This document shows, piece by piece, positions 5,431-64,000 of a DNA stretch of 64,000 nt. Under the pieces are notes generated by a model that saw only the letters and a program-made list of their open reading frames with translations, was not told the DNA's origin and ran no database searches. The stretch's first letter is position 1. The number at the start of each line of letters is the position of its first letter. A program made the position numbers and the translations under genes. This stretch comes from an uncultured virus (IMG/VR IMGVR_UViG_3300036790_000345) (lineage: Duplodnaviria; Heunggongvirae; Uroviricota; Caudoviricetes), in IMG/VR virus record IMGVR_UViG_3300036790_000345; one strand, written 5' to 3'.

Positions 5431-5563
5431 CAGTGACTGCTCTGACGGCTGAAGCCGCCAGCTTCTCAGGCTGCATGAGCCTGACCAGAGCCCAGTCCGG
5501 CCCTGGTGTAGATATGGACGAGGCAACCGCGGCTCCGGACCCCGGCCGCTCGTAGGGAGTGAC

Positions 5564-5818
5564 GTGAGCCGATGGTTTTTGCTGAAAGACATCCTGCTGA
5601 CCGGGACGGGCGTGGCCGTGATCTTCAGCCAGGTCCTGTCGGCACACCCGGACGGGCTGCTGCTGGGCACGGGCCTGGCGCTCACCGTGCCGACGATCGC
5701 CGACCACGTGAAGGCACTGCTGCCCTCTTCTGGCGGTGGGGGATCCTCACCGTCATCGCCGCCGCCGACACCGCGGCCATCGCAGCCATCGCAGCGGGAG
5801 GGGTCCACTGGTGAGTGA
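5564..5818 (+). CDS. Small two-TM membrane protein, possible holin
   Basis: Two hydrophobic segments; upstream of the endolysin. Confidence 0.45.
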   Translation: MSRWFLLKDILLTGTGVAVIFSQVLSAHPDGLLLGTGLALTVPTIADHVKALLPSSGGGGSSPSSPPPTPRPSQPSQREGSTGE

Positions 5819-6173
5819 TGAGCAGTCCGAGTTCGTGATGCGCTACAGCGGCGGCGCGCCGCCGGGGCCGAAGGGCGACAAGGGCGAGCAGGGGGCGCTG
5901 CCCGCGCGGGCGCGCCGGTCCCTGCTCGCCCGCGACATCGTGATCATCTGCCTGCTGCTGCTGAATTTCCTGTTCACCGCCCACTACGTGAACAGCCAGC
6001 AGTCGGCGGCGCAGCGCGCCGGGGCGAAGGTGATCGCGAAGGTGTGCGCGGGGTTCGCGCGGCTGGCGGCGGAGAAACCCCCGGCGGGCAATCCGGCGAC
6101 GAACCCGTCGCGGGCGTTCGACCAGGGGCAGCACGCGACGCTGGTCGGCATCGGCGCCGACCTGTGCCGGTGA
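5811..6173 (+). CDS. Membrane protein of lysis cassette with short collagen-like GPKGDKGEQG
   Basis: GTG start overlapping previous gene; one TM helix. Confidence 0.5.
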   Translation: MSDEQSEFVMRYSGGAPPGPKGDKGEQGALPARARRSLLARDIVIICLLLLNFLFTAHYVNSQQSAAQRAGAKVIAKVCAGFARLAAEKPPAGNPATNPSRAFDQGQHATLVGIGADLCR

Positions 6174-7545: not shown

Positions 7546-8580
7546 TCATGCCCGCTGGCTCATCGGCACGACGGTCCGCTTCTGCCTCGCCATTTTCAGC
7601 GCCTCAGCGGCCTTCTCCGTGGACACGTGAAGATCGCGCTTCACCCGCGCCTGGGAGACGTTCCCGTATGCCCGCAGCATCGCCGAGACGTGAGGCTCGA
7701 GGTCAGCCGGGGACATGTTCCGGGACTTGCTCGCGGCGAGCCTCAGCGCAGGGCCGGAAGCTTGCGCGGGCCGTGCTCCCGGGCGCGCCCCGGAACTCGC
7801 TGCGGGACGTGTCCCGGGCACCGCGTCAGGCTCGCTCCGCGGGGTGCCTCCGGGTGCGCCCGCAGGCGGCCCTGAAGCGGCCCCGATCGCCTGCTCCTCG
7901 GCTGCCATCCGGGCGGCCAGCGCGGCGTTACGGGTCAGGCTCCGGACAACCCACTTCTCCACGGGCTCCTCCCACTTCGCCGCCCCGCCGAAGGATGCGC
8001 CGTCCCTGATCGCAGCGGCCACGGCGGCCGGCGGGCGGGAGTGGCGGATCTGGATCCGCAGCAGCGCCGGGGCGTGCCAGCGGCGCCAGCCCACCCGCGA
8101 GCGCACCAGGTCCGAGGCATACCGCATGGCCGCCTTCATTTCCTCGTCGGTGCGCACGTCCTCGTCAGAGACCGACATCGCCCGGATGGCCTGCTCGCCG
8201 GCGACGATCGGCACGAAGAACGCCAGGGTCACCGCGCCGTACCCGATGGACAGCAGGACGCTGCCGTGGCCGCCCCAGATGTTCAGCGCCAGGGACATCG
8301 CGGCGAAAAGGAACGGCGCCCAGCGCAGCCACATCTGGGGCTTGCGGGCCAGCAGCAGCAGCACGTCGAGCAGGAACAGGAACAGGAAGCTGCCCTCAGT
8401 CGCGGCGGGGACGATCCATGACCGGCTGCCCATCCCGGGCAGCAGCAGGTGCCGCACGTTAGCGAACATGTCGGCGAAGAACAGCGGCGAGAGGCCGACG
8501 CCGACCAGGATGACGAGAACGCGCATGGACCGCCATCCGCGGGAGCGCGCCTCGCGTGCGTGGGTTGGCATGCCGTTCAT
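7546..8580 (-). CDS. Multi-TM membrane protein with C-terminal HTH-like segment (DUF2637/Spd-like spread protein)
   Basis: About four N-terminal TM helices, Pro/Ala linker, C-terminal VSQARVKRDLHVSTEKAAEAL; downstream of the TraB-like gene. Confidence 0.6.
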   Translation of the reverse strand: MNGMPTHAREARSRGWRSMRVLVILVGVGLSPLFFADMFANVRHLLLPGMGSRSWIVPAATEGSFLFLFLLDVLLLLARKPQMWLRWAPFLFAAMSLALNIWGGHGSVLLSIGYGAVTLAFFVPIVAGEQAIRAMSVSDEDVRTDEEMKAAMRYASDLVRSRVGWRRWHAPALLRIQIRHSRPPAAVAAAIRDGASFGGAAKWEEPVEKWVVRSLTRNAALAARMAAEEQAIGAASGPPAGAPGGTPRSEPDAVPGTRPAASSGARPGARPAQASGPALRLAASKSRNMSPADLEPHVSAMLRAYGNVSQARVKRDLHVSTEKAAEALKMARQKRTVVPMSQRA

Positions 8581-11454: not shown

Positions 11455-12249
11455 TCAGGCGGTACGGGAGCGGGAGGAGCGGTCCAGGCGAGCCCAGCGG
11501 CCCTTTTCCCGGGTGCGCTCGCGGGGGACGAACTCGTCAGGGCGGCGGGCGAAGGGCGGCGCGCCATCTTTCGCCGCCGGGACGGGCTGGCTGCGGATTT
11601 CCGGGGCGCGGCGCGCGGGCTGCGGGTGGGAGCGCGCCTCAGCTTTCCGGGCCGCCGTCTCCAGTTCCTGTGCCCGGCCGAAGTCGTGTTCCGAGCGGGC
11701 ACGGGCGGCCTCGTCCCGGTACTGCGAGGTGAGCCGCTCGGTTTCGGTGACGGCCCTGGCCAGCCGCTGCGCCGGGGCGCGCTGCGCGGGCGGGACGAGC
11801 CCGGCCTGCTTCAGCAGGTCCGGCTGGCGGGCAGGCTGGCCGCTCCCCTTGGCGCGGGCGGGCGGGGGCCGCAGGCGCTCGCCGCGCTTCAGCGCCTTCT
11901 CGCGCTCCTTCAGGTCCGGGTTCGTCAGCGGGCCGCTCATCGGCGTGTGCCTGCGCCAGGGCGTTCCGGGCGCGGGTGCCGCGTGCCGCCGGCCCTTGGA
12001 GGCAGGCGCCGCGAGGCCGAGCCTGCGGTGCAGCGACGCGGGCGTGACCTTACGCGCAGCAGGCTTGAGCAGCCGGTCCTGCAGCCGGCGCTTGAATCCC
12101 CGCCGCTTGTGCAGGATGGCCTGGATCTCCTTGTGGGCGGCGACGCGCACCGCGTGAAAGGGCGAGCGCAGGTGCTTGATCGCCGCGTTCATGCGGAGCC
12201 GGTCGGGCCAGCTCAGCCGCTGGTGGGAACCTGAGTTCTGCTTAGCCAT
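11455..12249 (-). CDS. Basic hypothetical protein in transfer operon
   Basis: 264-aa ORF, GAGGAGGA RBS, co-oriented with neighbours. Confidence 0.55.
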   Translation of the reverse strand: MAKQNSGSHQRLSWPDRLRMNAAIKHLRSPFHAVRVAAHKEIQAILHKRRGFKRRLQDRLLKPAARKVTPASLHRRLGLAAPASKGRRHAAPAPGTPWRRHTPMSGPLTNPDLKEREKALKRGERLRPPPARAKGSGQPARQPDLLKQAGLVPPAQRAPAQRLARAVTETERLTSQYRDEAARARSEHDFGRAQELETAARKAEARSHPQPARRAPEIRSQPVPAAKDGAPPFARRPDEFVPRERTREKGRWARLDRSSRSRTA

Positions 12250-14042
12250 GCGGGTGCATCCTCCTCAATCTGTACGGGGTGACGGTCTTCGATCACGGGC
12301 GCGGGCGCGCCGGGCATCGGGATGGCATCGCGCGGGGCCGCGGCCTCAAGCTCGGGCGGCTGCGGCGCCAGCGCGGCCTGCTGGGCGGCCAGCAGTGCCG
12401 GGCCGAGCGGGGCGGGCTTGTAGCCGGGGAGCTTCCACGCGGGCTCCAGGCGCGCCAGCAGCGGGCGCGTGGAGCGGTGCAGCAGGACGGCCTGCCACGG
12501 CTTCAGGGTGCGGATCCGCTCCGGCGGGAACAGCCGCTCCTTGCCCGGCTGGCGGGTCTTGCGCCCGTCCGGGCCGCGGGAATGGTGCCAGGTGTCGCGC
12601 TCCCCGCACACCGCGGACAGGGCCTCGAGCTCGGCGTGGTCGTTGCGGCCGCGCAGGATGAGCTGGACGGTGGCGTTGTCGCGGATGGTCTTCGCCCCGT
12701 GCTCCCCCCACCGGGAGGCGAGTTGCGCCGGGGACTGGACTCCCGTGATGATCGTGATCCCGTGGCCCCCGGCCTCGGCGGACCACTTGTCGATGGGGAC
12801 CGGGCAGGTGATGGCGGGCTCGTCGAGGACCATCGTCAGGGGCGGGTCCAGGCGCATGCCCTCGCAGCGGGACGCCAGCCGCTTGGCCGTCGACCAGATA
12901 TGGGCGGTCATCCAGGCGCAGTAAGGGGCCACGCTGCCGTGCGGCTTGTCGGCCGCGATCAGGTACAGCGTCGCGCCGGAGAGGATGAAGTCGACGGCGT
13001 CGAACTCGGCGTCGCGCGGGCCGGGGCAGGCGACCATTTCCATGAACGGGTCGTCCATCCACGACACCGCGCCCTCGGCCGCCCCGGTGATGCCGTCCAG
13101 GGTTTCCGGGGCGATCGACAGCAGCCCGGCCAGCTTCCCGGCCCATCCCTCTGCCGCGGACGGCAGGCACAGGGCGGCGGCGAACCGCGGGTCAGCCGGG
13201 TTGCGCACCCACGCGGTCACGTGGCGCATGTCCCCGCCAGCGACCGCGGCGGCGTGCATCGCCAGGCGCAGCAATTCGGCGCCGCGCTGATCCCAGTGCG
13301 CGTCCTTCCCCGTCTTGTCGGACGGGGCGGCGTGCATCAGGTAGCCGGCGGACTCGATCGCGATCTGCGGGATATGGCACCCGGTCAGCGGCGACAGCAT
13401 GAAGTTCGTCGGCAGGTCCCCGTCACCGTCCGGGTTGAGCACCCACAGCGGGCCCTTCGCGGCTCTGGCCATCGCGGTGTGCACCCACGTGTCGGTGCGC
13501 GTGGTCGTGGAGATCGCGGCGCCGGGAGCCTCGGCCAGCCACGCGCATTCCGTCCCGGACTTGCCGGTACGGGGGGCGCCGATGAGCAGGATCACGTCCT
13601 CGTGGGAGGCCATCAGGGTGCGCGCCGGGGTGGTGCAGGACGAGCCGAGGCGGATGCCCGCGTCGGCCGCCGGGATCTTCCCGGCCAGCGCCGGGCGCGT
13701 CACCTTCGCCTGCTTGCGGGCCGCCCGGACCGACAGGCTGCCGCCGACCTCGCGCCGGGTGGCGGTCCCCTGGAACTTCCGCCGCTGCCTCGCGGCACGC
13801 TTGCCGCCCGAGCGGCGCTCCCGCAGGCTGTCCCAGCCATCCCGGCCGTACCAGACGGCCACGCCCCCGGCGGCGAAGCCGGTAAAGGGCAGCGGCGCCG
13901 CGTGGGCAAGCTGGAGGATCTCAGCGGCACCGAGGACGACCGCCGGCCTGACGGTGGCCTTCACCACGGCGCGCCGGGCCTTCTCCTTGCGGGCCTTGAC
14001 GAAGCCCTTCGCCGGGGGCTCGGGCTGCTTGCGCTTGATCAC
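12213..14042 (-). CDS. VirD4/TraD/TraG-like type IV coupling protein
   Basis: Walker A GAPRTGKSG, ISTTTRTD, LDPPLTMVLDEPA, GVQSPAQLASRWG..GAKTIRDNA. Confidence 0.85.
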   Translation of the reverse strand: MIKRKQPEPPAKGFVKARKEKARRAVVKATVRPAVVLGAAEILQLAHAAPLPFTGFAAGGVAVWYGRDGWDSLRERRSGGKRAARQRRKFQGTATRREVGGSLSVRAARKQAKVTRPALAGKIPAADAGIRLGSSCTTPARTLMASHEDVILLIGAPRTGKSGTECAWLAEAPGAAISTTTRTDTWVHTAMARAAKGPLWVLNPDGDGDLPTNFMLSPLTGCHIPQIAIESAGYLMHAAPSDKTGKDAHWDQRGAELLRLAMHAAAVAGGDMRHVTAWVRNPADPRFAAALCLPSAAEGWAGKLAGLLSIAPETLDGITGAAEGAVSWMDDPFMEMVACPGPRDAEFDAVDFILSGATLYLIAADKPHGSVAPYCAWMTAHIWSTAKRLASRCEGMRLDPPLTMVLDEPAITCPVPIDKWSAEAGGHGITIITGVQSPAQLASRWGEHGAKTIRDNATVQLILRGRNDHAELEALSAVCGERDTWHHSRGPDGRKTRQPGKERLFPPERIRTLKPWQAVLLHRSTRPLLARLEPAWKLPGYKPAPLGPALLAAQQAALAPQPPELEAAAPRDAIPMPGAPAPVIEDRHPVQIEEDAPAWLSRTQVPTSG

Positions 14043-19461: not shown

Positions 19462-19535
19462 CGCGAGGTAGCGCAGTTCGGCAGCGCGATGGGCTCATAA
19501 CCCATAGGTCGCCGGTTCAAATCCGGTCCTCGCAA
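19462..19535 (+). tRNA. tRNA-Met(CAT), initiator type; CCA not encoded
   Basis: Cloverleaf: acceptor CGCGAGG/CCTCGCA with C1:A72 mismatch, anticodon stem ATGGG/CCCAT with three G-C pairs, loop CTCATAA, T-arm GGTTCAAATCC; -10 TAAAAT at 19450. Confidence 0.95.
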
Positions 19536-20010
19536 CGACCACGCCCGGTGCTCACCTTCGGGTGACCGGCGTGTGGGCGGCCCGTCCGGGCTCCGCGCCG
19601 TCCCGAGCAAAGTAGCCGCGCAGTCCTGGGCAGGGCGGCCACGCTGGCTAGAGGGTGAGGCCAGCACCAAGGATTCCCGCTAAGGGGGGACGCTCAGGGC
19701 AGGGATGTGCTGGTGCCCGTGAGTCTGACCAGCCAGGCGGCCGGAGCCACTGACCGGCGCCCTGTCTCCCCGCTCACACAGAGGTAGATAGGCAGTTCCC
19801 GGCCAGGGGCTCACGGCCCCGGCCGGTTTACTTTGTTTACCCGAGCCCGGCACCGGGAGACGGGTACCCGGGCGGCGTGGCCCCGGCCGCCGGCCACGGG
19901 GCACCCTCACTGCCTGGCGGGTACGCTGGCTCGCGGGTCCCCGCGCCGGCTCCATTGCGGATAGCGCCTTGCTGACACTCGGTGCCCCCCGGCGCGGGGA
20001 CTCTTTCGTG
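19536..20010 (+). ncRNA. Candidate structured non-coding RNA downstream of the tRNA
   Basis: No convincing ORF; C(TTCG)G hairpin and several long-range complementary segments (see findings). Confidence 0.45.
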
Positions 20011-42131: not shown

Positions 42132-42626
42132 GCACCGGGCCCGTGCGCCTGGACGACGCCATCGCCGCGGTGGCCGCAGCCTTGCCGGTCACGCCCGAGC
42201 GAGCCGCCGCGAACGCCCGGGTCCTGGACGAGGAAGTGGCCGCATACCTGGCAGCCCGCGAGGACGACGGCGGGGAGACAGCGGCATGAGCGCCCCGGTC
42301 TCCCCGCCGCGCCCGGGCTACGGCCGGTGCTGCGGGCGTCCTGCCAGCCGTCCCCGCGGCCTCGCCAGCGCTTGCTACGCGAAGTGCTGGCGACCGGAAT
42401 CCAGCGTCTCCCCGGCCAGCTTCACCGCCCAGGTCGAGGAGCGCCGCGAGCTGCTGTCGTTCGGCCTTACCCGGGCTCAGGCAGCGGAGCGGCAGGGCAT
42501 CTCGGCGAGAACAGCGGAGCGGTATGACGCGGCGATCGCAGCGATCAGGGCAGCAGAGGACGCCGGGGCGGAAGAGGCCGCAGCGTGAACCCGAAAGCAA
42601 GATCAGCGAGGAGAGGAAGGACGATC

Positions 42627-43355
42627 ATGACGACATCAGTTTCCGTCCCGGCGGCAAAGCTGCGGGAAATGCTGGAAGCGGTCATCCCGCACGCCAGCCC
42701 TGATGACACGCTCCCGTCGCTCGTGGCCGTGCGCTTCGAGGTGGCTGGCGGGACGCTGTACGTGGCCGCGACGGACCGGTACACGCTGGCCGTAGCCCGG
42801 TACCCGGTCCCGGGCGCACAGGAAGCGCCCGTCCCGGACGCGGGCGTGACGCTGCCGCTGAAGGCGGCGAAGTCGCTGCGGCGGATGCTGAAGAACGGCC
42901 AGGGCGTTGCCGCGCTCCTGCTCGCTGACGAGACGTTCTCGGCCGATGCCGGATCCCAGTCCGGCAAGTGGGCGGTTACCACCAGCCTGGAGTTCCCGGA
43001 CTGGCGGGCGACGCTGCGCAAGATGCTCACCGCGCCGCCGGCCGAACTCGGCGACGGCCACGGCATGGGCGCGGAGATCCTGGGCCGGTTCACGGCCGGG
43101 GCGGACCCCTTCACCCGGAATCCGCTGCGCATCCGCGTGACTTTCGGCGGGACCTCCCAGAAGTTCAACCGCGAGCCGGAGCCGGCTCCCGTCATGGTCA
43201 TCACGCGCGGCGACTGGTTCATCGGCGCCGCCATGCCCGTGCGGATCGGTGAATACGACGGGCATGGCGCGTGGGACGACTGGGCCGCCGTCGTGGCTCC
43301 CGCCGAGACTGCCGGGCCGCAAGCCGCCATGGCAGCGACGGAGGCCGGGTCGTGA
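42627..43355 (+). CDS. DNA polymerase III beta-clamp-like protein
   Basis: AVIPHASPDDTLPSL..VAATDRYTLA..FPDWR..AAMPVR. Confidence 0.7.
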   Translation: MTTSVSVPAAKLREMLEAVIPHASPDDTLPSLVAVRFEVAGGTLYVAATDRYTLAVARYPVPGAQEAPVPDAGVTLPLKAAKSLRRMLKNGQGVAALLLADETFSADAGSQSGKWAVTTSLEFPDWRATLRKMLTAPPAELGDGHGMGAEILGRFTAGADPFTRNPLRIRVTFGGTSQKFNREPEPAPVMVITRGDWFIGAAMPVRIGEYDGHGAWDDWAAVVAPAETAGPQAAMAATEAGS

Positions 43356-57512: not shown

Positions 57513-58019
57513 ATGGCTGAGCCTTGGCCGAAGACAATCCCCGACCCGGCAGACCCTTCCGGGCTGGCCAGCCTGCCGATGCCGGACGAGATGGCTCGCG
57601 CAGACCAGTACGTCCCGTCCCGGGCCGAGCTCGACAATGAGGCCTACCTGGTGTCCCGCGGCGTCCGCCCGCTGGCCCTGGCCGGCCACTACCCGGCCGT
57701 CCCGCTGGTCATGTGCCGGGTGAAAACCCTGCTGCACCGGGCCCGGCAGTCCGAGCTGGTGATCCCGTTCATTTTCGCCGAGGGCGGCGACCCTGGCTCC
57801 GCAGCGTTCGGCTACGCCTCGCACCGCTGGTGCATAGACCTGCTGGAGTGGGCCCTTGACGGCGGCGTGCCGCCGGACCGCAAGCACGAGATCCTCGGCC
57901 TGCTGCTCGGCTACTCGCCGTCATCGATAGCACGGCACCAGGAACGCGGCGAGCTGTGGGCGTACCGGGACGAGGACGAGCGCGATAAAAATTCCAAGAT
58001 CAGGTTCCCGGCAAGATGA
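57513..58019 (+). CDS. Hypothetical protein immediately upstream of the Cas12m-like gene
   Basis: GGAGG RBS; ends 14 nt before the effector start. Confidence 0.65.
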   Translation: MAEPWPKTIPDPADPSGLASLPMPDEMARADQYVPSRAELDNEAYLVSRGVRPLALAGHYPAVPLVMCRVKTLLHRARQSELVIPFIFAEGGDPGSAAFGYASHRWCIDLLEWALDGGVPPDRKHEILGLLLGYSPSSIARHQERGELWAYRDEDERDKNSKIRFPAR

Positions 58020-58033
58020 AGGAGGCTGGAGTC

Positions 58034-59686
58034 ATGAGCGAACACGCTGAACGCGACGTGCCTCTCATGCGAGCCTTCGCGTACGGCTGCCCGGCACGCG
58101 CTGACCTGGACGACGCCGGCATCCGCCAGCTCCGGCTGGCGAACCAGCTGTGGAACGCGCTGGTGGAGGCCGAGCACGCGCACGAGGACGCGAAGGCCGC
58201 GATCTGGGGGCGTGACCCGCGGGTCGCCGCCGCGCAGGAAACGCTCGCCGCCGCGCAGCAGGCCGCGGATGAGATCCGGGAACGGATACGCGCCAGCCGG
58301 CAGGCTGACCGGACCACGGTGCCCCGTGACGGCGACAAGTCCGCCCTCGCGGCTGCGTCCTCGGCGCGCAGGGAGGCGAAGACGGCGCTGGACGCCGCGC
58401 GGCAGGCTGCGCTGCCCGGCCTGCGGGAGGCGTTCGGCGAGGCGAAAAAGGCCCGCGCCGCCGCGCACAAGGCCCTGTACAAGACGTTCGTGCAGGAGAA
58501 AGGGCTCGGCTGGGGCACCCACAATGACATCGTGCGCCGCCGGTTTCCTGCTGCGGTGGCGAAGGTGGAGGAACGCCGCAAGTCGGGCCTGCCCGCGCAA
58601 CTGCGGTACAGGCGGTTCGATGGCACGGGGACGCTGACGGTGCAGGTTCAGCGGCAGGCCGGGCACCCGCCGCGCACCGTCCCGGCGCTGAACAGCGGCC
58701 GGCACCCGCAGTCCGGTGTCCTGGCCCTGACCCCGTGGCAGGACATGGCAGGCCGGCCGAAGGGCGCTGCGCGGCACGGCACGCTCACGGCCAGGATCGG
58801 CCGCGGGCGCGGCTTTGACCCGTTGCGGCTGGAGATCCCCGTGGTGCTGGACCGGTACCTGCCGGCGGGCGCGGACGTGTGCGAGGTGAAGATCAGCCGC
58901 CGGGTCACCGGCACCCACGCCCGGCTGTCAGTGTCGGTCGTCTGCCAGGTTCGCGAGCCCGCGCCGCGCGGCGGCCACGCTGACGTCGCTGTGCGTCTCG
59001 GCTGGAAGTCGGCCGGGGACGGGTGGACCGAGGTAGCGCACATCGGCAGCAGCGACCCGCTCCCGGCACCTCCTGCTGCCATTGCCGCGATCACTCGCGT
59101 CAGCGGGGACGGCCTGTCAGCGGACGTGCTGTACCCGGCCGAGTGGCGGAAGCTGCTCGAGCGGGACGCGGCCATACGGTCGGTGCGTGACCAGGATCTG
59201 GAGCCGGTGCGGGACAAGGTGACTGTGGCGCTGCGGCAGGACGCCGTGCTTGCGGAGTCCCTGGGCGTGACCGCGGGTGAGGTGTCGCGGTGGCGGGCAC
59301 CGCGCAGGTTCGCGGTTCTGGCCCGGTCGTGGCCGGCCGGGCACGAGCTGGCGCCCGTGCTGGAGGAGTGGCGGCGGCGGGACAGGCACCTGTACGACTA
59401 TGAGGCACACGAGCGCGCCCAGGTGACCGCCCGGCGGCGGGACGCGTGGCGGTGCGTGGCGGCGTGGCTGTGCACCGCTGCCGCCGGGGTCGCGGTTGAC
59501 GGCCTGGACGTGGCCGCGCTGAAACGCGAGCCGGATGTCAGCCGCGAGGATCCAGAGCAGGCCCGGCGCGGCCGTGCGCAGATGCACGCCGCGGCTCCCG
59601 GCGAGCTGCGCGCCGCTGTCCTCGCGGCGGCGAAGGCCAGGAAGATACCGGTTACCGTGATACGCAGGAGAAAGGACGAGACGTGA
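58034..59686 (+). CDS. cas12m: Type V-M (V-U1) Cas12m-like CRISPR effector, 550 aa, C-terminally shortened
   Basis: QLRLANQLWNALV, KALYKTF, LRYRRFDGTGTLTVQVQRQAGHPPRT, VAVRLGWKS, WRAPRRFA, AAPGELRAAV are collinear with Cas12m motifs as I recall them; AAGGAGG RBS; adjacent CRISPR array. Confidence 0.85.
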   Translation: MSEHAERDVPLMRAFAYGCPARADLDDAGIRQLRLANQLWNALVEAEHAHEDAKAAIWGRDPRVAAAQETLAAAQQAADEIRERIRASRQADRTTVPRDGDKSALAAASSARREAKTALDAARQAALPGLREAFGEAKKARAAAHKALYKTFVQEKGLGWGTHNDIVRRRFPAAVAKVEERRKSGLPAQLRYRRFDGTGTLTVQVQRQAGHPPRTVPALNSGRHPQSGVLALTPWQDMAGRPKGAARHGTLTARIGRGRGFDPLRLEIPVVLDRYLPAGADVCEVKISRRVTGTHARLSVSVVCQVREPAPRGGHADVAVRLGWKSAGDGWTEVAHIGSSDPLPAPPAAIAAITRVSGDGLSADVLYPAEWRKLLERDAAIRSVRDQDLEPVRDKVTVALRQDAVLAESLGVTAGEVSRWRAPRRFAVLARSWPAGHELAPVLEEWRRRDRHLYDYEAHERAQVTARRRDAWRCVAAWLCTAAAGVAVDGLDVAALKREPDVSREDPEQARRGRAQMHAAAPGELRAAVLAAAKARKIPVTVIRRRKDET

Positions 59687-60216
59687 TGACAGGCCAGATA
59701 CCGTCCGGGTCGATCGGGCAGCAGCTCCGCGAGGCGCTGAAGGCGGGCGCGACGCCGGAGGATGCGGTCCGCAAGGTGCTCGGCCCGTTCGGCGCGGTTC
59801 TCGCGGAGGCAGGCAATGATCACCTGGTCGGGTATGCGCGGCCGGCGGTGCTGTCGGAGGCGCGGCGGCTGGGCCGTCAGCTGATCCGCCGGGCGGAGGA
59901 CCGGTCGTTCGGCGCGGCGCCGGCGTCGCGGGACCGGATGCGGCTGGGGCAGATCGAGTTTCACCTGCCGGATGGCCAGGTGGTGTCGTGGGCGGATGCG
60001 ACAGCGGAGCAGCACGGGGCGCGTATCGCGTGGCTGCGGACGTATATCTCCAGCGTGGAGGAGGACCTGGCCCGTCATGAGCGGGCGGCGAAGCTGCTGG
60101 CTGAGCATGGCGCGGCGAAGCTGTCCGACATCCCCGGGTGGGAGGATCTGATCGGCGACGACGCGGACAGCGAAGACGCGGATGACGGGGATGCGAGCGC
60201 TGAGGCGGTAGCCTGA
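59683..60216 (+). CDS. Uncharacterised 177-aa protein between effector and array, acidic C-terminal tail
   Basis: GTGA overlap with the effector stop, AAAGGA RBS, high-GC3 codon usage. Confidence 0.8.
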   Translation: MMTGQIPSGSIGQQLREALKAGATPEDAVRKVLGPFGAVLAEAGNDHLVGYARPAVLSEARRLGRQLIRRAEDRSFGAAPASRDRMRLGQIEFHLPDGQVVSWADATAEQHGARIAWLRTYISSVEEDLARHERAAKLLAEHGAAKLSDIPGWEDLIGDDADSEDADDGDASAEAVA

Positions 60217-60360
60217 AAGCCGGGGAGCGCTCGCACGCAGGTCAGGGCGGGTATTGCGCATCTTGACAACTGAACGTATGAGCGAAAAGGTGTTCGCGGA
60301 ACGGTCCGCTCGCAGTGGTCCCGCATACCCGCAGGCCAGGTGCCCCGTATTCTGCGAGCC
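60217..60360 (+). promoter_or_regulatory. CRISPR leader
   Basis: Non-coding, relatively AT-rich, TTGACA at 60263; at the non-degenerate end of the array. Confidence 0.6.
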
Positions 60361-61277
60361 GTCGCTATGCCGGCGCAGAGGCTTCGTATCTGCGAGCGTT
60401 GAGGTATTCAGATCGGGCCGATCTGGCGTCCCGGTCGCTATGCCGGCGCAGAGGCTTCGTATCTGCGAGAGGCCCTCCAGCGTGGAGGCCAGCTCGTCGT
60501 CGATGAGTCGCTATGCCGGCGCAGAGGCTTCGTATCTGCGAGAGGCCCTCCAGCGTGGAGGCCAGCTCGTCGTCGATGAGTCGCTATGCCGGCGCAGAGG
60601 CTTCGTATCTGCGAGCGGATCTACGACGTGCTACCGGACGACGAGAAGATCATGTCGCTATGCCGGCGCAGAGGCTTCGTATCTGCGAGGATATCAGCTG
60701 CTGGCAGTGCGGCCCGGTGTGCGCGGGGTCGCTATGCCGGCGCAGAGGCTTCGTATCTGCGAGGCATCGGTTAGTGCCGTGGCGGCCGGTCGCCAGCACG
60801 TCGCTATGCCGGCGCAGAGGCTTCGTATCTGCGAGTAGTCCACCTTCACGGCTCGCTGGTCGACGTACATGAGGTCGCTATGCCGGCGCAGAGGCTTCGT
60901 ATCTGCGAGGGGGGCAAGGCCCATACGCCTGCCTCGACTCGGACGACGTCGCTATGCCGGCGCAGAGGCTTCGTATCTGCGAGACATCCACTCCGTGAGG
61001 TCGGCGCTCGCTAGCTCGCGTCGCTATGCCGGCGCAGAGGCTTCGTATCTGCGAGATGTCGGAGACCGGGGTGACGCGCAACTCCGGCTTCGTCGTAATG
61101 CCAGCGCAGAGGCTTCGTATCTGCGAGCTGTTGATGTGGCCCACCGCGTCGGCGATCTTGTCGATGTCGTCGCTATGCCAGCGCAGAGGCTTCGTATCTG
61201 CGAGGTACAGTGTGGTGCAGGGGGCGTCTCCGACTCGCAGAGTCGTAATGCCAGCGCAGAGGCTTCGTATCTGCGAG
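60361..61277 (+). CRISPR. CRISPR array: 13 repeats of 36 bp (GTCGCTATGCCGGCGCAGAGGCTTCGTATCTGCGAG) and 12 spacers of 36-41 bp
   Basis: Repeats start at 60361, 60434, 60507, 60580, 60654, 60728, 60800, 60874, 60948, 61020, 61092, 61169, 61242; 3' hairpin CGCAGA/TCTGCG; last three repeats carry variants. Confidence 0.99.
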
Positions 61278-61311: not shown

Positions 61312-61641
61312 TTGTCGCAGGTGGACGACGAGGCACTGGCCGCCTTCGGCCGCAGCCTCACTGCCCAGATGGAAGGCGTCCAGGAATGGATGCGGCAGGC
61401 CTTCCATCTGCTCGCCCGCGCGGTCGCCCGGGCCGCAGACGACACGGGCAAGATGCTCGCCGCGGCGTTCAGCTACACCTGGGACGACCGGCTGCACTAT
61501 CACGCCCCGGACGCACCCCGCCGGGTGCTTCGCCGCTGCCGGGCCTGTCACCCGGAGGGCAACCCGCTCCCGCTGGCCGTTGACGGCAGGGGGTACCGGC
61601 GGCGGCAGTCAGCTCGCAGGCGGCGCGGCAGAGGCCAGTGA
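61312..61641 (+). CDS. Hypothetical protein or 5'-truncated gene remnant after the array
   Basis: Coding-like composition but no clear RBS or start. Confidence 0.35.
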   Translation: MSQVDDEALAAFGRSLTAQMEGVQEWMRQAFHLLARAVARAADDTGKMLAAAFSYTWDDRLHYHAPDAPRRVLRRCRACHPEGNPLPLAVDGRGYRRRQSARRRRGRGQ

Positions 61642-62583
61642 TGCGGCCAGAGCGTAAACGGGGGAGTGGTCAAGCCGGGAGCGCATCCGGTCGTAGCGCT
61701 CGGTAGTCCGCGGGTCGACGTGGCCGGCTAGCGCCTGCACGTCCCGCAGTGAGCAACCGCGCTCGAGCGCCTCGGTCAGCGCCGAGTGCCGCAGCGAGTG
61801 GGGATGCAGCGCATTCGCCTGCGGCAGTTTCGCCCGCACTGCGATGCGGCGGATCAGCCGGTACAGGCCCGGCTCGTCAAGACGCCCGCGGCCGCCATCG
61901 CGCGGCGAGGTCGCGAAGAGCGGGCCGTCAATGCGCCCGTCCAGGTAGGCGTCCAGCACGACGCCGACCCACGGCGCGACCGGCAGGTGCTGGCGCCTGC
62001 CGCCCTTCCGGGTGACCGTGAGCACCCGGTGGCCCCCCGTGTGGCCTAGGTCGTTCACATCTGCCGCGAGTACCTCGGTGGTCCGCGCCCCCGTGGTCAG
62101 CATCACGGCGGCGAGGGCGTGCGCCCGGCGCGAGTGCGCCTGGGCCGCCTCGAGGAACGCGACCATCTCCTTGCGGTTCAGCCACGAGATCGTGTCCTCG
62201 TCCTGCTGGCGCTTCGGCCGCTTCATCTCCTTGATCGGGTTGGCTTCCATGTCGCCGGTCTCTGCGGCGTAGCTGAAGAACGACGACGACGACGACAGCC
62301 GCCGCGCGATGGTCGCCTCGGAGACCGCCCGCGAGCCGTCTTCGCGAACTGTGCGGCGCATCGACTCGGCCCACGCCGCTACCTGCCGCCGCGTCGCCGC
62401 GAGGACGCTGGTGCCGTGCTCGCCGAGGAATGCCGCGAGAAGCCTGATGTCCTTCGCGTACGCGGTGCGCGTGTTGGCGCCCGGGTGCTCGAGCAGCCAT
62501 CCGGTGATGGCGCTCAGGGAGTCGCTGTCTGCGGCGATGACGGCGAGCGCGTCAGGCTCGGCCGCGGCGGGCAAGATCGTCAT
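61609..62583 (-). CDS. Tyrosine recombinase (XerC/D-like)
   Basis: TGARTTE, RKGG, HPHSLRH, LAGH, TTERY catalytic residues; N-terminal NTRTAY..D. Confidence 0.92.
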   Translation of the reverse strand: MTILPAAAEPDALAVIAADSDSLSAITGWLLEHPGANTRTAYAKDIRLLAAFLGEHGTSVLAATRRQVAAWAESMRRTVREDGSRAVSEATIARRLSSSSSFFSYAAETGDMEANPIKEMKRPKRQQDEDTISWLNRKEMVAFLEAAQAHSRRAHALAAVMLTTGARTTEVLAADVNDLGHTGGHRVLTVTRKGGRRQHLPVAPWVGVVLDAYLDGRIDGPLFATSPRDGGRGRLDEPGLYRLIRRIAVRAKLPQANALHPHSLRHSALTEALERGCSLRDVQALAGHVDPRTTERYDRMRSRLDHSPVYALAASLASAAPPAS

Positions 62584-62689
62584 GGATGACAGAGTAACAG
62601 GAATTATCCTGCATACTCCGGAGCGCTGTAGCGCGTCTCTAACCAGCCGCTAGCACTGTTCGCTGCGCAGTCCCGATAGCCTTTGATCC

Positions 62690-62920
62690 ATGCGGCAGGC
62701 CGATCTCGCGGTGATCGCGCAGACCCGTGACGATCTCGCGTCGGGCCGGGCACGGGCGGCGAGGAATGAGGCCAGGATCACCCAGGCCGAGTTCGCTTCG
62801 GTGCTCGGCGTGCACCGGTCCGCGGTCAGCCACTGGGAGTCCGGCCGGTCCGTTCCCTCCGCGCCTCACGCCCTGGCCTACGGCAGGCTGCTGCGTCAGC
62901 TCGGGAAGAAGGCGGCATGA
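62690..62920 (+). CDS. XRE-family HTH protein, possible directionality factor or regulator
   Basis: ARNEARITQAEFASVLGVHRSAVSHWESG. Confidence 0.75.
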   Translation: MRQADLAVIAQTRDDLASGRARAARNEARITQAEFASVLGVHRSAVSHWESGRSVPSAPHALAYGRLLRQLGKKAA

Positions 62921-62960
62921 TGGCCCTCGTCTGCCCGGCAGGCCGCTGCCCGTGCCTCAG

Positions 62961-64000
62961 CTAGACGGGGATGCCGGAGTGCCCCGGCCCCTGCCATGGC
63001 GGTTCCCAGGCGGGGAACACCCGGGCATGGCAGTCCTGCCCGTCCTCGCCGCGCCATGCCACCACCGAGAGGATCAGGCCGGCCAGCGCGTTCCGGGCCC
63101 GGTCCGGGCGCATGGTGTCCCACTCGTCCAGCAGTGTGCGGATGACCGGGTGCACGTCGGGTGCCATGCCGCCGGCCCGCTGCTGCTCGCGGGCCAGCAA
63201 GGTGACGATCCGCTCCCGCTCGGCGAGCAGCTCGGCTCTCGCCCCGGCCCATGCCCGCGCGGGGACGTCCTCCTCGCGTGCCTGCCGGGCCAGGAGCCGG
63301 GCCAGTTCCCGGTCCTTCTTCGCGAGCTCGGCCTCCAGCTGCCCGGCGCTGGCCCGCGCGGCGGAGACCGCCGCCCCGGCCGCGGCCAGCCCCTGCTCGC
63401 CGGCGAGGCGGATGTCCTCGGCGGCGAGCCACGCCAGGACGGCGCCGAGGACGGCGTCGTAGCGGACGCCCCGCCCTCGCGAGGGACAGTCCTTGTACCG
63501 GTCCCAGCGGGAGCACCGCGCCAGCGTCCGTGCCGTGCCGTGCGAGATCTTCAGGACGGCCTTCGCCCCGCAGTGCCCGCATTGCAGGAGGCCGGTCAGC
63601 GCGTAGCGGGGCGCGCGGGAGCGCGGCGGGGTGGCGCTGACCGCGGCGCGCCGGCGCAGGTACGCCTGCCATTCGGGGGGGCTGATGACAGGCTCGTGGG
63701 CGCCGGCGAGCAGGACCGTGCGTGAGCAGCGGGCCGCCTTGCCGCAGCCGCACGCCGGGTCGTGGACGCGCAGGTACCCGGCGCCGAACCCGGAGTCGAG
63801 GGTGCGCCGGACAAGGTAGGGCGCCCACCTGGTGCCGCGGGTGTTGCGGATCCCCGCGTCGTTGAGCACGGCCGCGATGACGGCCGGCTGGTCGCCCCGG
63901 ATGTAGGAGAGGTACATCTCGCGCAGCACCGGCCCGGTCAGCGGGTCGTGCTCGTACCGCTCGCCGGCCGGGTCGGCGGTGTCGCGGCGGGTGCGGCGCG
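62961..64000 (-). CDS. Large serine recombinase/integrase, C-terminal part (5' beyond window)
   Basis: IAAVLNDAGIRNTRGTRW, GAHEPVIS, LTGLLQCGHCG zinc ribbon, coiled coil; frame open to the window end. Confidence 0.88.
   Translation of the reverse strand, partial: RRTRRDTADPAGERYEHDPLTGPVLREMYLSYIRGDQPAVIAAVLNDAGIRNTRGTRWAPYLVRRTLDSGFGAGYLRVHDPACGCGKAARCSRTVLLAGAHEPVISPPEWQAYLRRRAAVSATPPRSRAPRYALTGLLQCGHCGAKAVLKISHGTARTLARCSRWDRYKDCPSRGRGVRYDAVLGAVLAWLAAEDIRLAGEQGLAAAGAAVSAARASAGQLEAELAKKDRELARLLARQAREEDVPARAWAGARAELLAERERIVTLLAREQQRAGGMAPDVHPVIRTLLDEWDTMRPDRARNALAGLILSVVAWRGEDGQDCHARVFPAWEPPWQGPGHSGIPV

Follow-up and report, generated by a model that had tools for sequence, protein, structure and literature searches.

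A Cas12m-like effector lacking the zinc finger and RuvC-III, its conserved partner gene and a CRISPR array on a phage-like element

Cas12m is prized as a natural nuclease-free, compact and programmable DNA binder. Type V-M has been reported from plasmids and from some prophages (Koonin review) and is described as tied to arrays but not to further cas genes (Altae-Tran 2023). The described Cas12m clades all retain a three-residue RuvC triad, canonical or altered (HDD, NDD, DED, HEK and others), and in Cas12m2 the zinc ligands are H549, C552, C569 and C572, with D579 as the third RuvC residue (Omura 2023). A related case is provided by the TnpB-like TldRs, which, according to the Wiegand preprint, retain RNA-guided DNA binding after C-terminal truncation. 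These prophage-encoded, fliCP- and oppF-associated proteins combine a decayed RuvC triad with truncation of the zinc finger and RuvC-III and are paired with a specific neighbour gene. Nuclease-dead Cas12 proteins joined by extra proteins are found in Cas12k with TniQ/TnsC (V-K CAST), Cas12m-Cas3 and CasMu-V, the last of which has also lost RuvC-III, as stated in Altae-Tran 2023 Science.

The locus described here lies in a 64,000-nucleotide stretch of an uncultured virus (hereafter the window) and, like the evidence as a whole, comes from metagenomic contigs. It shares with type V-M (MmCas12m/Cas12m2, GoCas12m, PmCas12m) a homologous effector of the same overall fold, the same 36-nt repeat family with the same paired positions, an array downstream on the same strand, the lack of adaptation genes in the window and carriage on a mobile element. 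It differs from type V-M in that the effector lacks the HCCC zinc-finger TNB and RuvC-III and carries Arg at RuvC-I, and in that a conserved extra gene separates effector and array in 7/7 loci of the branch. The TldRs have suffered the same loss and show a similar pairing, but they are TnpB descendants with a single omega-RNA-like guide, whereas here a member of the Cas12m lineage accompanies an array of 13 repeats and 12 spacers. Moreover, their paired gene encodes flagellin or an ABC-transporter component, and here it is a gene without a known family. In contrast to the multicomponent Cas12 systems, the locus has no transposase, Cas3 or recognisable partner, and encodes instead a 176-aa protein without a known fold.

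Effector, partner, leader and array are encoded on the + strand throughout. The effector gene (58034..59686, +; 550 aa) occupies an open frame spanning 58016..59686. Its likely start is the ATG at 58034, with an AGGAGG at 58020-58025, 8 nt ahead of the start, and the protein read from there matches P0001 of our protein collection letter for letter. The effector stop TGA (59684-59686) is overlapped by both candidate starts of the translationally coupled partner gene (59686..60216, +), namely the GTG at 59683, which gives 177 aa, and the ATG at 59686, which gives the 176-aa protein P0033. The leader of 144 nt (60217..60360, +; partly conserved in relatives) and the array of 13 repeats of 36 nt with 12 spacers, 11 of them distinct (60361..61277, +), complete the module. 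GC3 at the locus is 0.88 and 0.85, as is typical for real genes there. The coordinates thus bear out the original prediction of a 550-aa ORF, an overlapping 177-aa ORF, a 144-nt leader and a 13-repeat array, all co-oriented. The same holds for its claim that cas1, cas2 and cas6 are missing from the window: PADLOC (E <= 1e-5), with a reach equal to that of ORF calling in the window, gave no match to cas1, cas2, cas4 or cas6 in the 80 other called ORFs.

Profile, sequence comparison with solved Cas12m structures and predicted fold all identify the 550-aa protein as a Cas12m homologue. It matches the PADLOC profile Cas12u1 with an E-value of 3.4e-97 (profile positions 4-487 of 533), Cas12m2 (8hhl) with 3e-59 over chain residues 22-543 of 598, and GoCas12m with 2.6e-57. 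In Foldseek, its AF2 model (pLDDT 88.6) matches 8hhl_A with E 1.1e-39, a TM score of 0.87 and an rmsd of 2.8 Å, and GoCas12m 8pm4_A likewise with a TM score of 0.87, the rmsd range for the two structures being 2.8-3.3 Å. The next-best fold families, Cas12f and TnpB, reach TM scores of only 0.35-0.39. The predicted model thus has the Cas12m fold, which is made up of WED, a sickle-like REC1/REC2 and the RuvC core. The assignment as a Cas12m-like effector, made earlier from the sequence, therefore stands; what it overlooked is the main oddity of the protein revealed by the alignment, the absence of the whole TNB zinc finger and of RuvC-III.

The effector C-terminus falls just past the RuvC-II region, level with Cas12m2 residue ~543, and because the protein stops there it is devoid of both parts. 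In alignment A1 the first catalytic residue is replaced by Arg (VAVRLGW), the second acidic residue, the Asp of RuvC-II (VAVDG), is the sole survivor and the third segment is gone; judged by these residues, the effector cannot be a RuvC nuclease. H..C...C..C and DQD are found in 5/5 full-length Cas12m proteins of the same alignment. No Cys cluster is present at the effector C-terminus, and reading through the stop in the window uncovers no zinc-finger remnant. A candidate remnant obtained by stop read-through in locus L012 (CGT...CAKC) was rejected because it is absent in the window and in L005, and because the overlapping partner N-terminus is homologous to family members without a neighbouring Cas12m. 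The truncated proteins share a common end point and open frames in 16/16 cases, which favours a conserved state over decay. In a quick tree, from which the L002 row was disregarded (wrong reading frame), they can form one side of a branch, but with a support of only 20 they may or may not share a single origin. According to a recent preprint (bioRxiv 2026.03.26.714355), engineered deletion of the TNB in PmCas12m, an attempt to make the protein smaller, strongly reduced or abolished activity, and the truncated effector may therefore not work alone.

The array is not a chance pattern, since it is regular, is built from identical repeats, has relatives elsewhere and shows covarying stems. Repeats one to ten are identical and 1-3 changes are seen in the last three, so that the degenerate repeats lie at the far end; the spacers measure 36-41 nt (n = 12), and spacers 2 and 3 are identical. 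The repeat family is common to the full-length Cas12m loci, with a consensus shared with L001-L004. Two interleaved stems at repeat positions 9-11:20-22 and 14-19:29-34 covary across loci, with 98.7% of cells paired and changes on both sides in 6/9 pairs. None of 500 shuffles scored as well, and slides by 1-3 columns paired at 32-50%. Folding of single repeat sequences gave no useful signal (z between -0.9 and 0.3), and Rfam returned no match. In a search for an anti-repeat across the window, nothing on the reverse strand matched the 24-nt repeat core at up to 5 mismatches, so that within the window no tracrRNA is indicated. These are V-M-type repeats of ~36 nt with a conserved structured handle, in agreement with what had been proposed from the window. 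Contigs from a soil run span the genes yet break within the array and are therefore uninformative on array variants; among the sequencing runs that contain the locus, none of RNA is listed.

The two-gene layout is real and conserved. The order cas12m-partner-array recurs in 7/7 truncated-effector loci (the window, L005 and L008-L012, of which L010 and L011 show just the cas12m end), and a profile search found no partner-family gene within ~6 kb at 6/6 full-length Cas12m loci. The original prediction had not recognised this layout as a described subtype, and we did not find it in the literature searched; the supplements of Bigelyte 2024 (134 Cas12m variants), Altae-Tran 2023 PNAS (V-M branch) and the Science paper (188 systems) may list the branch. 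Overlap of partner start and effector stop is seen again in L012, and in L011 the partner is split across two frames. Eight more effector/partner pairs were inferred from equal-sized source contigs. Pairwise identities of effector and partner correlate with r = 0.80 (7/5000 permutations as high) over 11 pairs, 7 of which were paired solely by equal size of their source contigs.

The partner protein is helical with one β hairpin and a strongly acidic disordered tail that carries a GWEDLIGDD motif. Close homologues number 24, relatives of the locus have the gene in the same place, and the acidic tail is found in 24/24. Searches of Pfam, NCBIfam, PADLOC, PHROGs and PDB sequences gave no match. 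For its AF2 model (pLDDT 89.6), the best Foldseek match in the PDB had E 2.0 and the best match in a wide VIA-align search a Z of 5.1, within noise for helical models; PDB sequence profiles for A2 and A4 yielded none below E 0.02. The wider family is large and unannotated, with 1103 clusters, and a GWExLI-like motif occurs in only 11/153 of its representatives. Tblastn of P0033 and P0087 against phages and plasmids found no match, two further viral-contig scans for the family returned nothing, and a scan of 401 isolate genomes of Actinomycetes gave 0 matches but scored nothing at all and is hence uninformative. A fused effector-partner protein was not seen among longer proteins, which is weak evidence, and a complex prediction for the two, run without controls, scored 0.00 and bears neither way. 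In the ESM Atlas the partner retrieves only unnamed, mostly viral clusters at 0.93, a lead only.

Taken together, the locus is probably a working type V-M derivative on a temperate phage-like element, in which a nuclease-dead, crRNA-guided DNA binder has recruited an accessory partner. We infer that the array would be transcribed from the leader and that each repeat would fold into the conserved V-M pseudoknot handle. The Cas12m-like protein would bind the resulting crRNAs and be guided to matching double-stranded DNA, and binding without cutting would block transcription or replication of rival mobile elements, possibly also of host genes. The partner may be a clade-specific accessory component drawn from a widespread and uncharacterised protein family, probably one of phages. 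Its added GWEDLIG motif and acidic tail could provide the contact to the truncated effector, and the partner might thereby either substitute for the missing TNB domain or modulate DNA binding. More tentatively, we propose a two-protein type V effector, in which the shortened Cas12m needs this small trans-acting subunit, taken from a phage family, to bind DNA stably or specifically under crRNA guidance, or in which the subunit links such binding to a novel effect downstream; such a distinct V-M sub-variant would be spreading on temperate actinophages and other integrative elements. In this branch the TNB and RuvC-III were lost in evolution, whereas array, repeat structure and the remaining fold persist and one small extra protein is always found alongside, a CRISPR-linked parallel to the truncated TnpB repressors (TldR) of prophages. 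If the partner compensates for what was lost or brings a function of another kind, it could yield a more compact binder or a new point of attack for engineering. Type V-M, which has been described without accessory subunits, would then also have its first.

An unlikely alternative is a passenger role for the partner: an ordinary gene of a phage would have come to lie between cas12m and array in some ancestor and been carried along ever since, with a function of its own, and the truncated Cas12m would act alone, as TldRs do without such a partner. A distant member of the partner family sits in a 37.9-kb viral record that has neither Cas12m nor an array, and the family therefore has its own function; furthermore, it mostly does not lie beside known Cas12m (1103 clusters against 32 Cas12m-like matches, the latter from a search restricted in reach by its need for shared words), and L005 holds two repeat-like units between cas12m and partner, as though an array had received the gene by insertion. 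A mere passenger would, however, have to be reconciled with its retention at all seven loci although effector identity drops to about 45%, with the conservation of the partner where the genes flanking the module are not conserved, and with its absence from the full-length loci. The overlap of its start with the effector stop, and a GWExLI-like motif and acidic tail that are particular to its branch, argue in the same direction.

The carrier of the module informs a further reading. Downstream of the array lie a tyrosine integrase (61609..62583, -; Pfam Phage_integrase, E 7.7e-19), an HTH_3 regulator (62690..62920, +; Pfam HTH_3, E 2.8e-11) and a large serine recombinase that runs past the window end (62961..64000, -; Pfam Recombinase and Zn_ribbon_recom, ~2e-07 each). 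Besides these two recombinases, the window encodes an endolysin, a protein shared with Streptomyces phages, ERF, an exonuclease, PrimPol and methylases. Phage genes and recombinases give reasonable support to the phage setting first suggested; the carrier is probably a temperate-phage-like integrative element, from soil, of a high-GC actinobacterium. A tRNA-Met at 19462-19536 was considered as attachment site and rejected, as no repeat of the tRNA occurs elsewhere in the window. Integrase and HTH genes also stand beside the module in L005 and L012, and in three elements it adjoins integrase or excisionase-like genes.

This neighbourhood, the lack of an adaptation module among the called ORFs of the window and the nearest functional analogues, the C-terminally truncated TldRs of prophages with their specific non-transposon partner gene, would fit a regulator rather than an immune system: the guides would aim the dead effector at host or phage promoters so as to control lysogeny or host physiology, with the partner as functionally linked cargo. 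We consider this rather improbable, given a regular array that holds twelve spacers of ordinary length, where TldRs have a single guide, and given the results of the spacer searches. For the 11 distinct spacers no protospacer, and hence none from which to derive a PAM, was found in the window, INPHARED phages, PLSDB plasmids, the related loci, five viral records or 401 Actinomycetes genomes; the silencing of competing elements or host genes that was first suggested is therefore a putative use. The best match within the 64-kb window, 14 nt of spacer 2/3 at 60048-60061 inside the partner gene (E 0.005), is taken as chance and not as a self-target. The best E-values were 0.3 against phages and 0.07 against plasmids, none significant, and the related loci and five viral records gave array-to-array matches only. 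Weak partial matches, mostly of spacer 11, occur in 30/401 Actinomycetes genomes; none is a convincing host target, and they are read as codon-bias matches because the four inspected lie in unrelated genes.

A locus in decay, with a truncated and inactive cas12m and a leftover array, is highly improbable: the two missing parts of the canonical protein, the inactivation of PmCas12m by TNB deletion, the lack of adaptation genes, the one duplicated spacer and the degenerate terminal repeats would suit this reading, but it is opposed by the shared end point and open frames of the truncated relatives, by GC3 values typical of real genes, by the confident effector model, by the ten identical repeats, and by the compensatory changes that maintain the repeat stems from locus to locus.

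A promoter scan scored no sigma-70 consensus promoter in the leader. A TTGACA is present there between two copies of a GCTCGC...CGCAGGYCAGG motif.

The original prediction of a 550-aa ORF, an overlapping 177-aa ORF, a 144-nt leader and a co-oriented array is borne out by the coordinates, with all four on the + strand. The effector lies in the open frame 58016-59686 and likely starts at ATG 58034, 8 nt 3' of an AGGAGG (58020-58025), which gives a 550-aa product identical to the recorded protein P0001. Its stop TGA (59684-59686) overlaps both candidate starts of the partner gene, a GTG at 59683 (177 aa) and an ATG at 59686 (176 aa, identical to the recorded P0033). The leader (60217-60360, 144 nt) separates this gene from the CRISPR array (60361-61277), which holds 13 repeats of 36 nt and 12 spacers of 36-41 nt. 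The final three repeats are degenerate and the other ten identical, which puts the leader end of the array on the side of the genes. As predicted for cas1, cas2 and cas6, PADLOC found none of these, nor cas4, among the 80 other ORFs called in the window.

Judged by sequence and predicted fold, the effector is a Cas12m by descent that lacks two parts of the canonical protein. It matches the PADLOC Cas12u1 model (V-U1, equivalent to V-M) with an E-value of 3.4e-97, restricted to profile positions 4-487 of 533, and at the sequence level the solved structures of Cas12m2 (8hhl, E 3e-59) and GoCas12m (8pm4, E 2.6e-57) as well as two newer Cas12m entries. Its AlphaFold2 model (pLDDT 88.6, pTM 0.80) superposes on Cas12m2 and GoCas12m with a TM-score of 0.87 (2.8-3.3 Å), whereas Cas12f and TnpB, the families next in rank, score just 0.35-0.39; the proposed Cas12m likeness thus withstood profile and structure comparison. 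The alignment to Cas12m2 stops at chain residue 543 of 598. For Cas12m2, Omura et al. 2023 give H549, C552, C569 and C572 as ligands of the TNB zinc finger and H317, D485 and D579 as the RuvC residues, so the effector stops short of both the zinc finger and RuvC-III. In a family alignment, 16 of 16 truncated relatives end a few residues past a conserved 'IPVTV' strand, and all five full-length relatives carry on with H..C...C..C and DQD. At the aligned RuvC-I position the window effector has Arg (VAVRLGW), where a few truncated relatives have Asp; at RuvC-II the aligned residue is Asp (VAVDG). A quick tree, in which the row of full-length locus L002 is invalid, is compatible with a single origin of the truncation without establishing it.

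The repeats point to the same relationship. Full-length Cas12m loci on viral contigs bear repeats such as GTCGAAATGCCCGCGCGGGGGCGTCGTACCCGCGAC, and by sequence the window repeat, GTCGCTATGCCGGCGCAGAGGCTTCGTATCTGCGAG, clearly falls into one family with them, in line with the Cas12m-type repeats of about 36 nt that had been expected. The proposed fold consists of two interleaved stems (9-11:20-22 and 14-19:29-34). Counted over 17 distinct repeats (10 loci plus the window), pairing holds in 98.7% of cells, a figure somewhat favoured by the derivation of the fold from the same sequences. Both sides vary in 6 of 9 pairs, none of 500 shuffles did as well, and sliding the stems by 1-3 columns lowers pairing to 32-50%; the changes in the predicted stems are plainly compensatory. 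No anti-repeat was found within the window, which fits a tracrRNA-free system.

The synteny of effector, small gene and array recurs in related loci. In all six partner-encoding loci fetched, L005 (a 93-kb viral contig) and L008-L012 (metagenomes), the partner directly follows a truncated cas12m and precedes an array whose repeats are related; in L010 and L011 no more than the end of cas12m is visible, and the L011 partner gene is broken across two frames. Eight further effector/partner pairs are matched by equally sized contigs, which suggests the same arrangement. The six full-length loci compared (L001-L004 from IMG/VR, one Mycolicibacterium and one Gordonia) have no partner-family gene within ~6 kb, profile search included. 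Pairwise identities of effector and partner correlate (r = 0.80 over 11 pairs; 7 of 5000 permutations as high), and the genes on either side of the module are not conserved. The leaders of the window, L005 and L008-L012 share a TTGACA between two copies of GCTCGC...CGCAGGYCAGG, elements that may serve as promoter, regulator site or leader-repeat signal; the final leader bases resemble the repeat 3' end (GTATTCTGCGAG). In L005, upstream of its main array, a pair of repeat-like units separated by a 42-nt spacer (7600-7713) sits exactly between the stop of the truncated cas12m and the partner ribosome-binding site, as if the partner gene had been inserted into an array near its start. The pair may be the scar of such an insertion, or else a mini-array or a regulatory cr-like RNA.

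The partner itself has no match in Pfam, NCBIfam, PADLOC, PHROGs or PDB sequences. Its 24 homologues (147-188 aa) almost entirely lack cysteine, and keep W102, H110, R113, W116 and R130-H-E-R133 invariant. A C-terminal 'IPGWEDLIGDD' motif is also common to them, as is an acidic tail that frequently ends in ASGEVVP; the last 30 residues are acidic in 24 of 24, with a median net charge of -11. The predicted model (pLDDT 89.6) combines a number of helices, of which two are long, with a beta hairpin and a disordered tail, and structure searches with it returned no convincing match. Against 1.84 billion representatives, the partner profile finds 1103 relatives at E <= 1e-3, of which 217 reach E <= 1e-10; none of the relatives scanned carries a Pfam or PHROG name, and a profile from distant members alone still recovers the window partner (E 4e-41). 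One distant member lies on a 37.9-kb viral record without Cas12m or array: the family is not unique to Cas12m. A GWExLI-like motif occurs in just 11 of 153 family representatives. In our reading of these sequences, a common uncharacterised, probably phage, gene would have been captured by the truncated Cas12m branch and then gained its tail. Two family members, P0084 (321 aa) and P0079 (269 aa), have an N-terminal extension with a C-x10-C-x2-C cluster, and the contigs of P0084 and of the truncated Cas12m P0021 are of equal size.

The Cas12m proteins described to date use crRNA guides to bind DNA and silence their targets with no cleavage; TldRs illustrate that a TnpB-type protein can shed zinc finger and RuvC-III while keeping specific DNA binding (Wiegand preprint); and an engineered TNB deletion largely destroyed the activity of PmCas12m (bioRxiv 2026.03.26.714355). 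The simplest fit to these three lines of evidence, and the most likely account, is that the effector would act as a dead crRNA-guided DNA binder that tolerates the loss of TNB, or has it offset, when the always-linked partner is present; that the two proteins touch each other we infer from synteny only.

No protospacer was found for any spacer in the window, phages, plasmids, related loci, five viral records or 401 Actinomycetes genomes. Many genomes gave weak matches to spacer 11; where inspected, these lie in unrelated genes, and they were rejected as targets. Spacers 2 and 3 (60470-60506 and 60543-60579) are identical, reflecting a duplicated repeat-spacer unit, and 14 of their bases recur in the partner gene (60048-60061), probably by chance.

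That the system is phage-encoded is well supported. The window (70.6% G+C) codes for a 940-aa protein also present in 32 Streptomyces phages and a Thermobifida phage (33% identity over 97%). Its other products include an endolysin, ERF, an exonuclease, HNH endonucleases, helicases, methylases, PrimPol, a MazG-like protein and a beta-clamp-like protein (DNA polymerase III beta clamp, central domain; 42585-43355, E 3.8e-11). Unusual for a phage is a minus-strand block at 7.2-16 kb, between lysis and early genes, with a TraG/VirD4-type coupling protein (12213-14042, TraG-D_C, E 1e-20); such conjugation-type genes may mark a second element or a phage-plasmid trait. A tRNA-Met (19462-19536) has no second copy in the window and is thus probably a gene that the element carries, not the mark of an attachment site. 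The array is directly followed by a tyrosine integrase and, beyond an HTH gene, a large serine recombinase (61609-64000), bringing together recombinases of two families; the module also neighbours integrase and HTH genes in L005 and L012. In a soil metagenome run, 80% of sampled words of 58034-61277 were present.

In the accessible literature, V-M loci are array-linked without other cas genes (Altae-Tran 2023) and the Cas12m RuvC triad decays gradually yet keeps three positions. In contrast, the window locus lacks the third position and the TNB and has an extra conserved gene. Cas12m-Cas3 and further multicomponent Cas12 systems are mentioned (Altae-Tran 2023 Science); neither a TNB-less Cas12m nor the partner is described in the accessible parts of the literature searched, and to that extent the two-gene layout differs, as proposed, from described subtypes. 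Also unlike V-M of the literature, the viral contig L003 (5154-7226) has a gene for a 681-aa, full-length Cas12m, after which come cas4, cas1 and cas2 (Pfam E 1.5e-12, 1.6e-78 and 6.1e-19, respectively) and then an array of eight V-M-type repeats; such loci could provide spacers in trans to arrays like that of the window. In L004, repeat-like units 51-56 nt apart flank a full-length cas12m on both sides (5494-5912 and 8004-8095), with implied spacers of ~16-20 nt.
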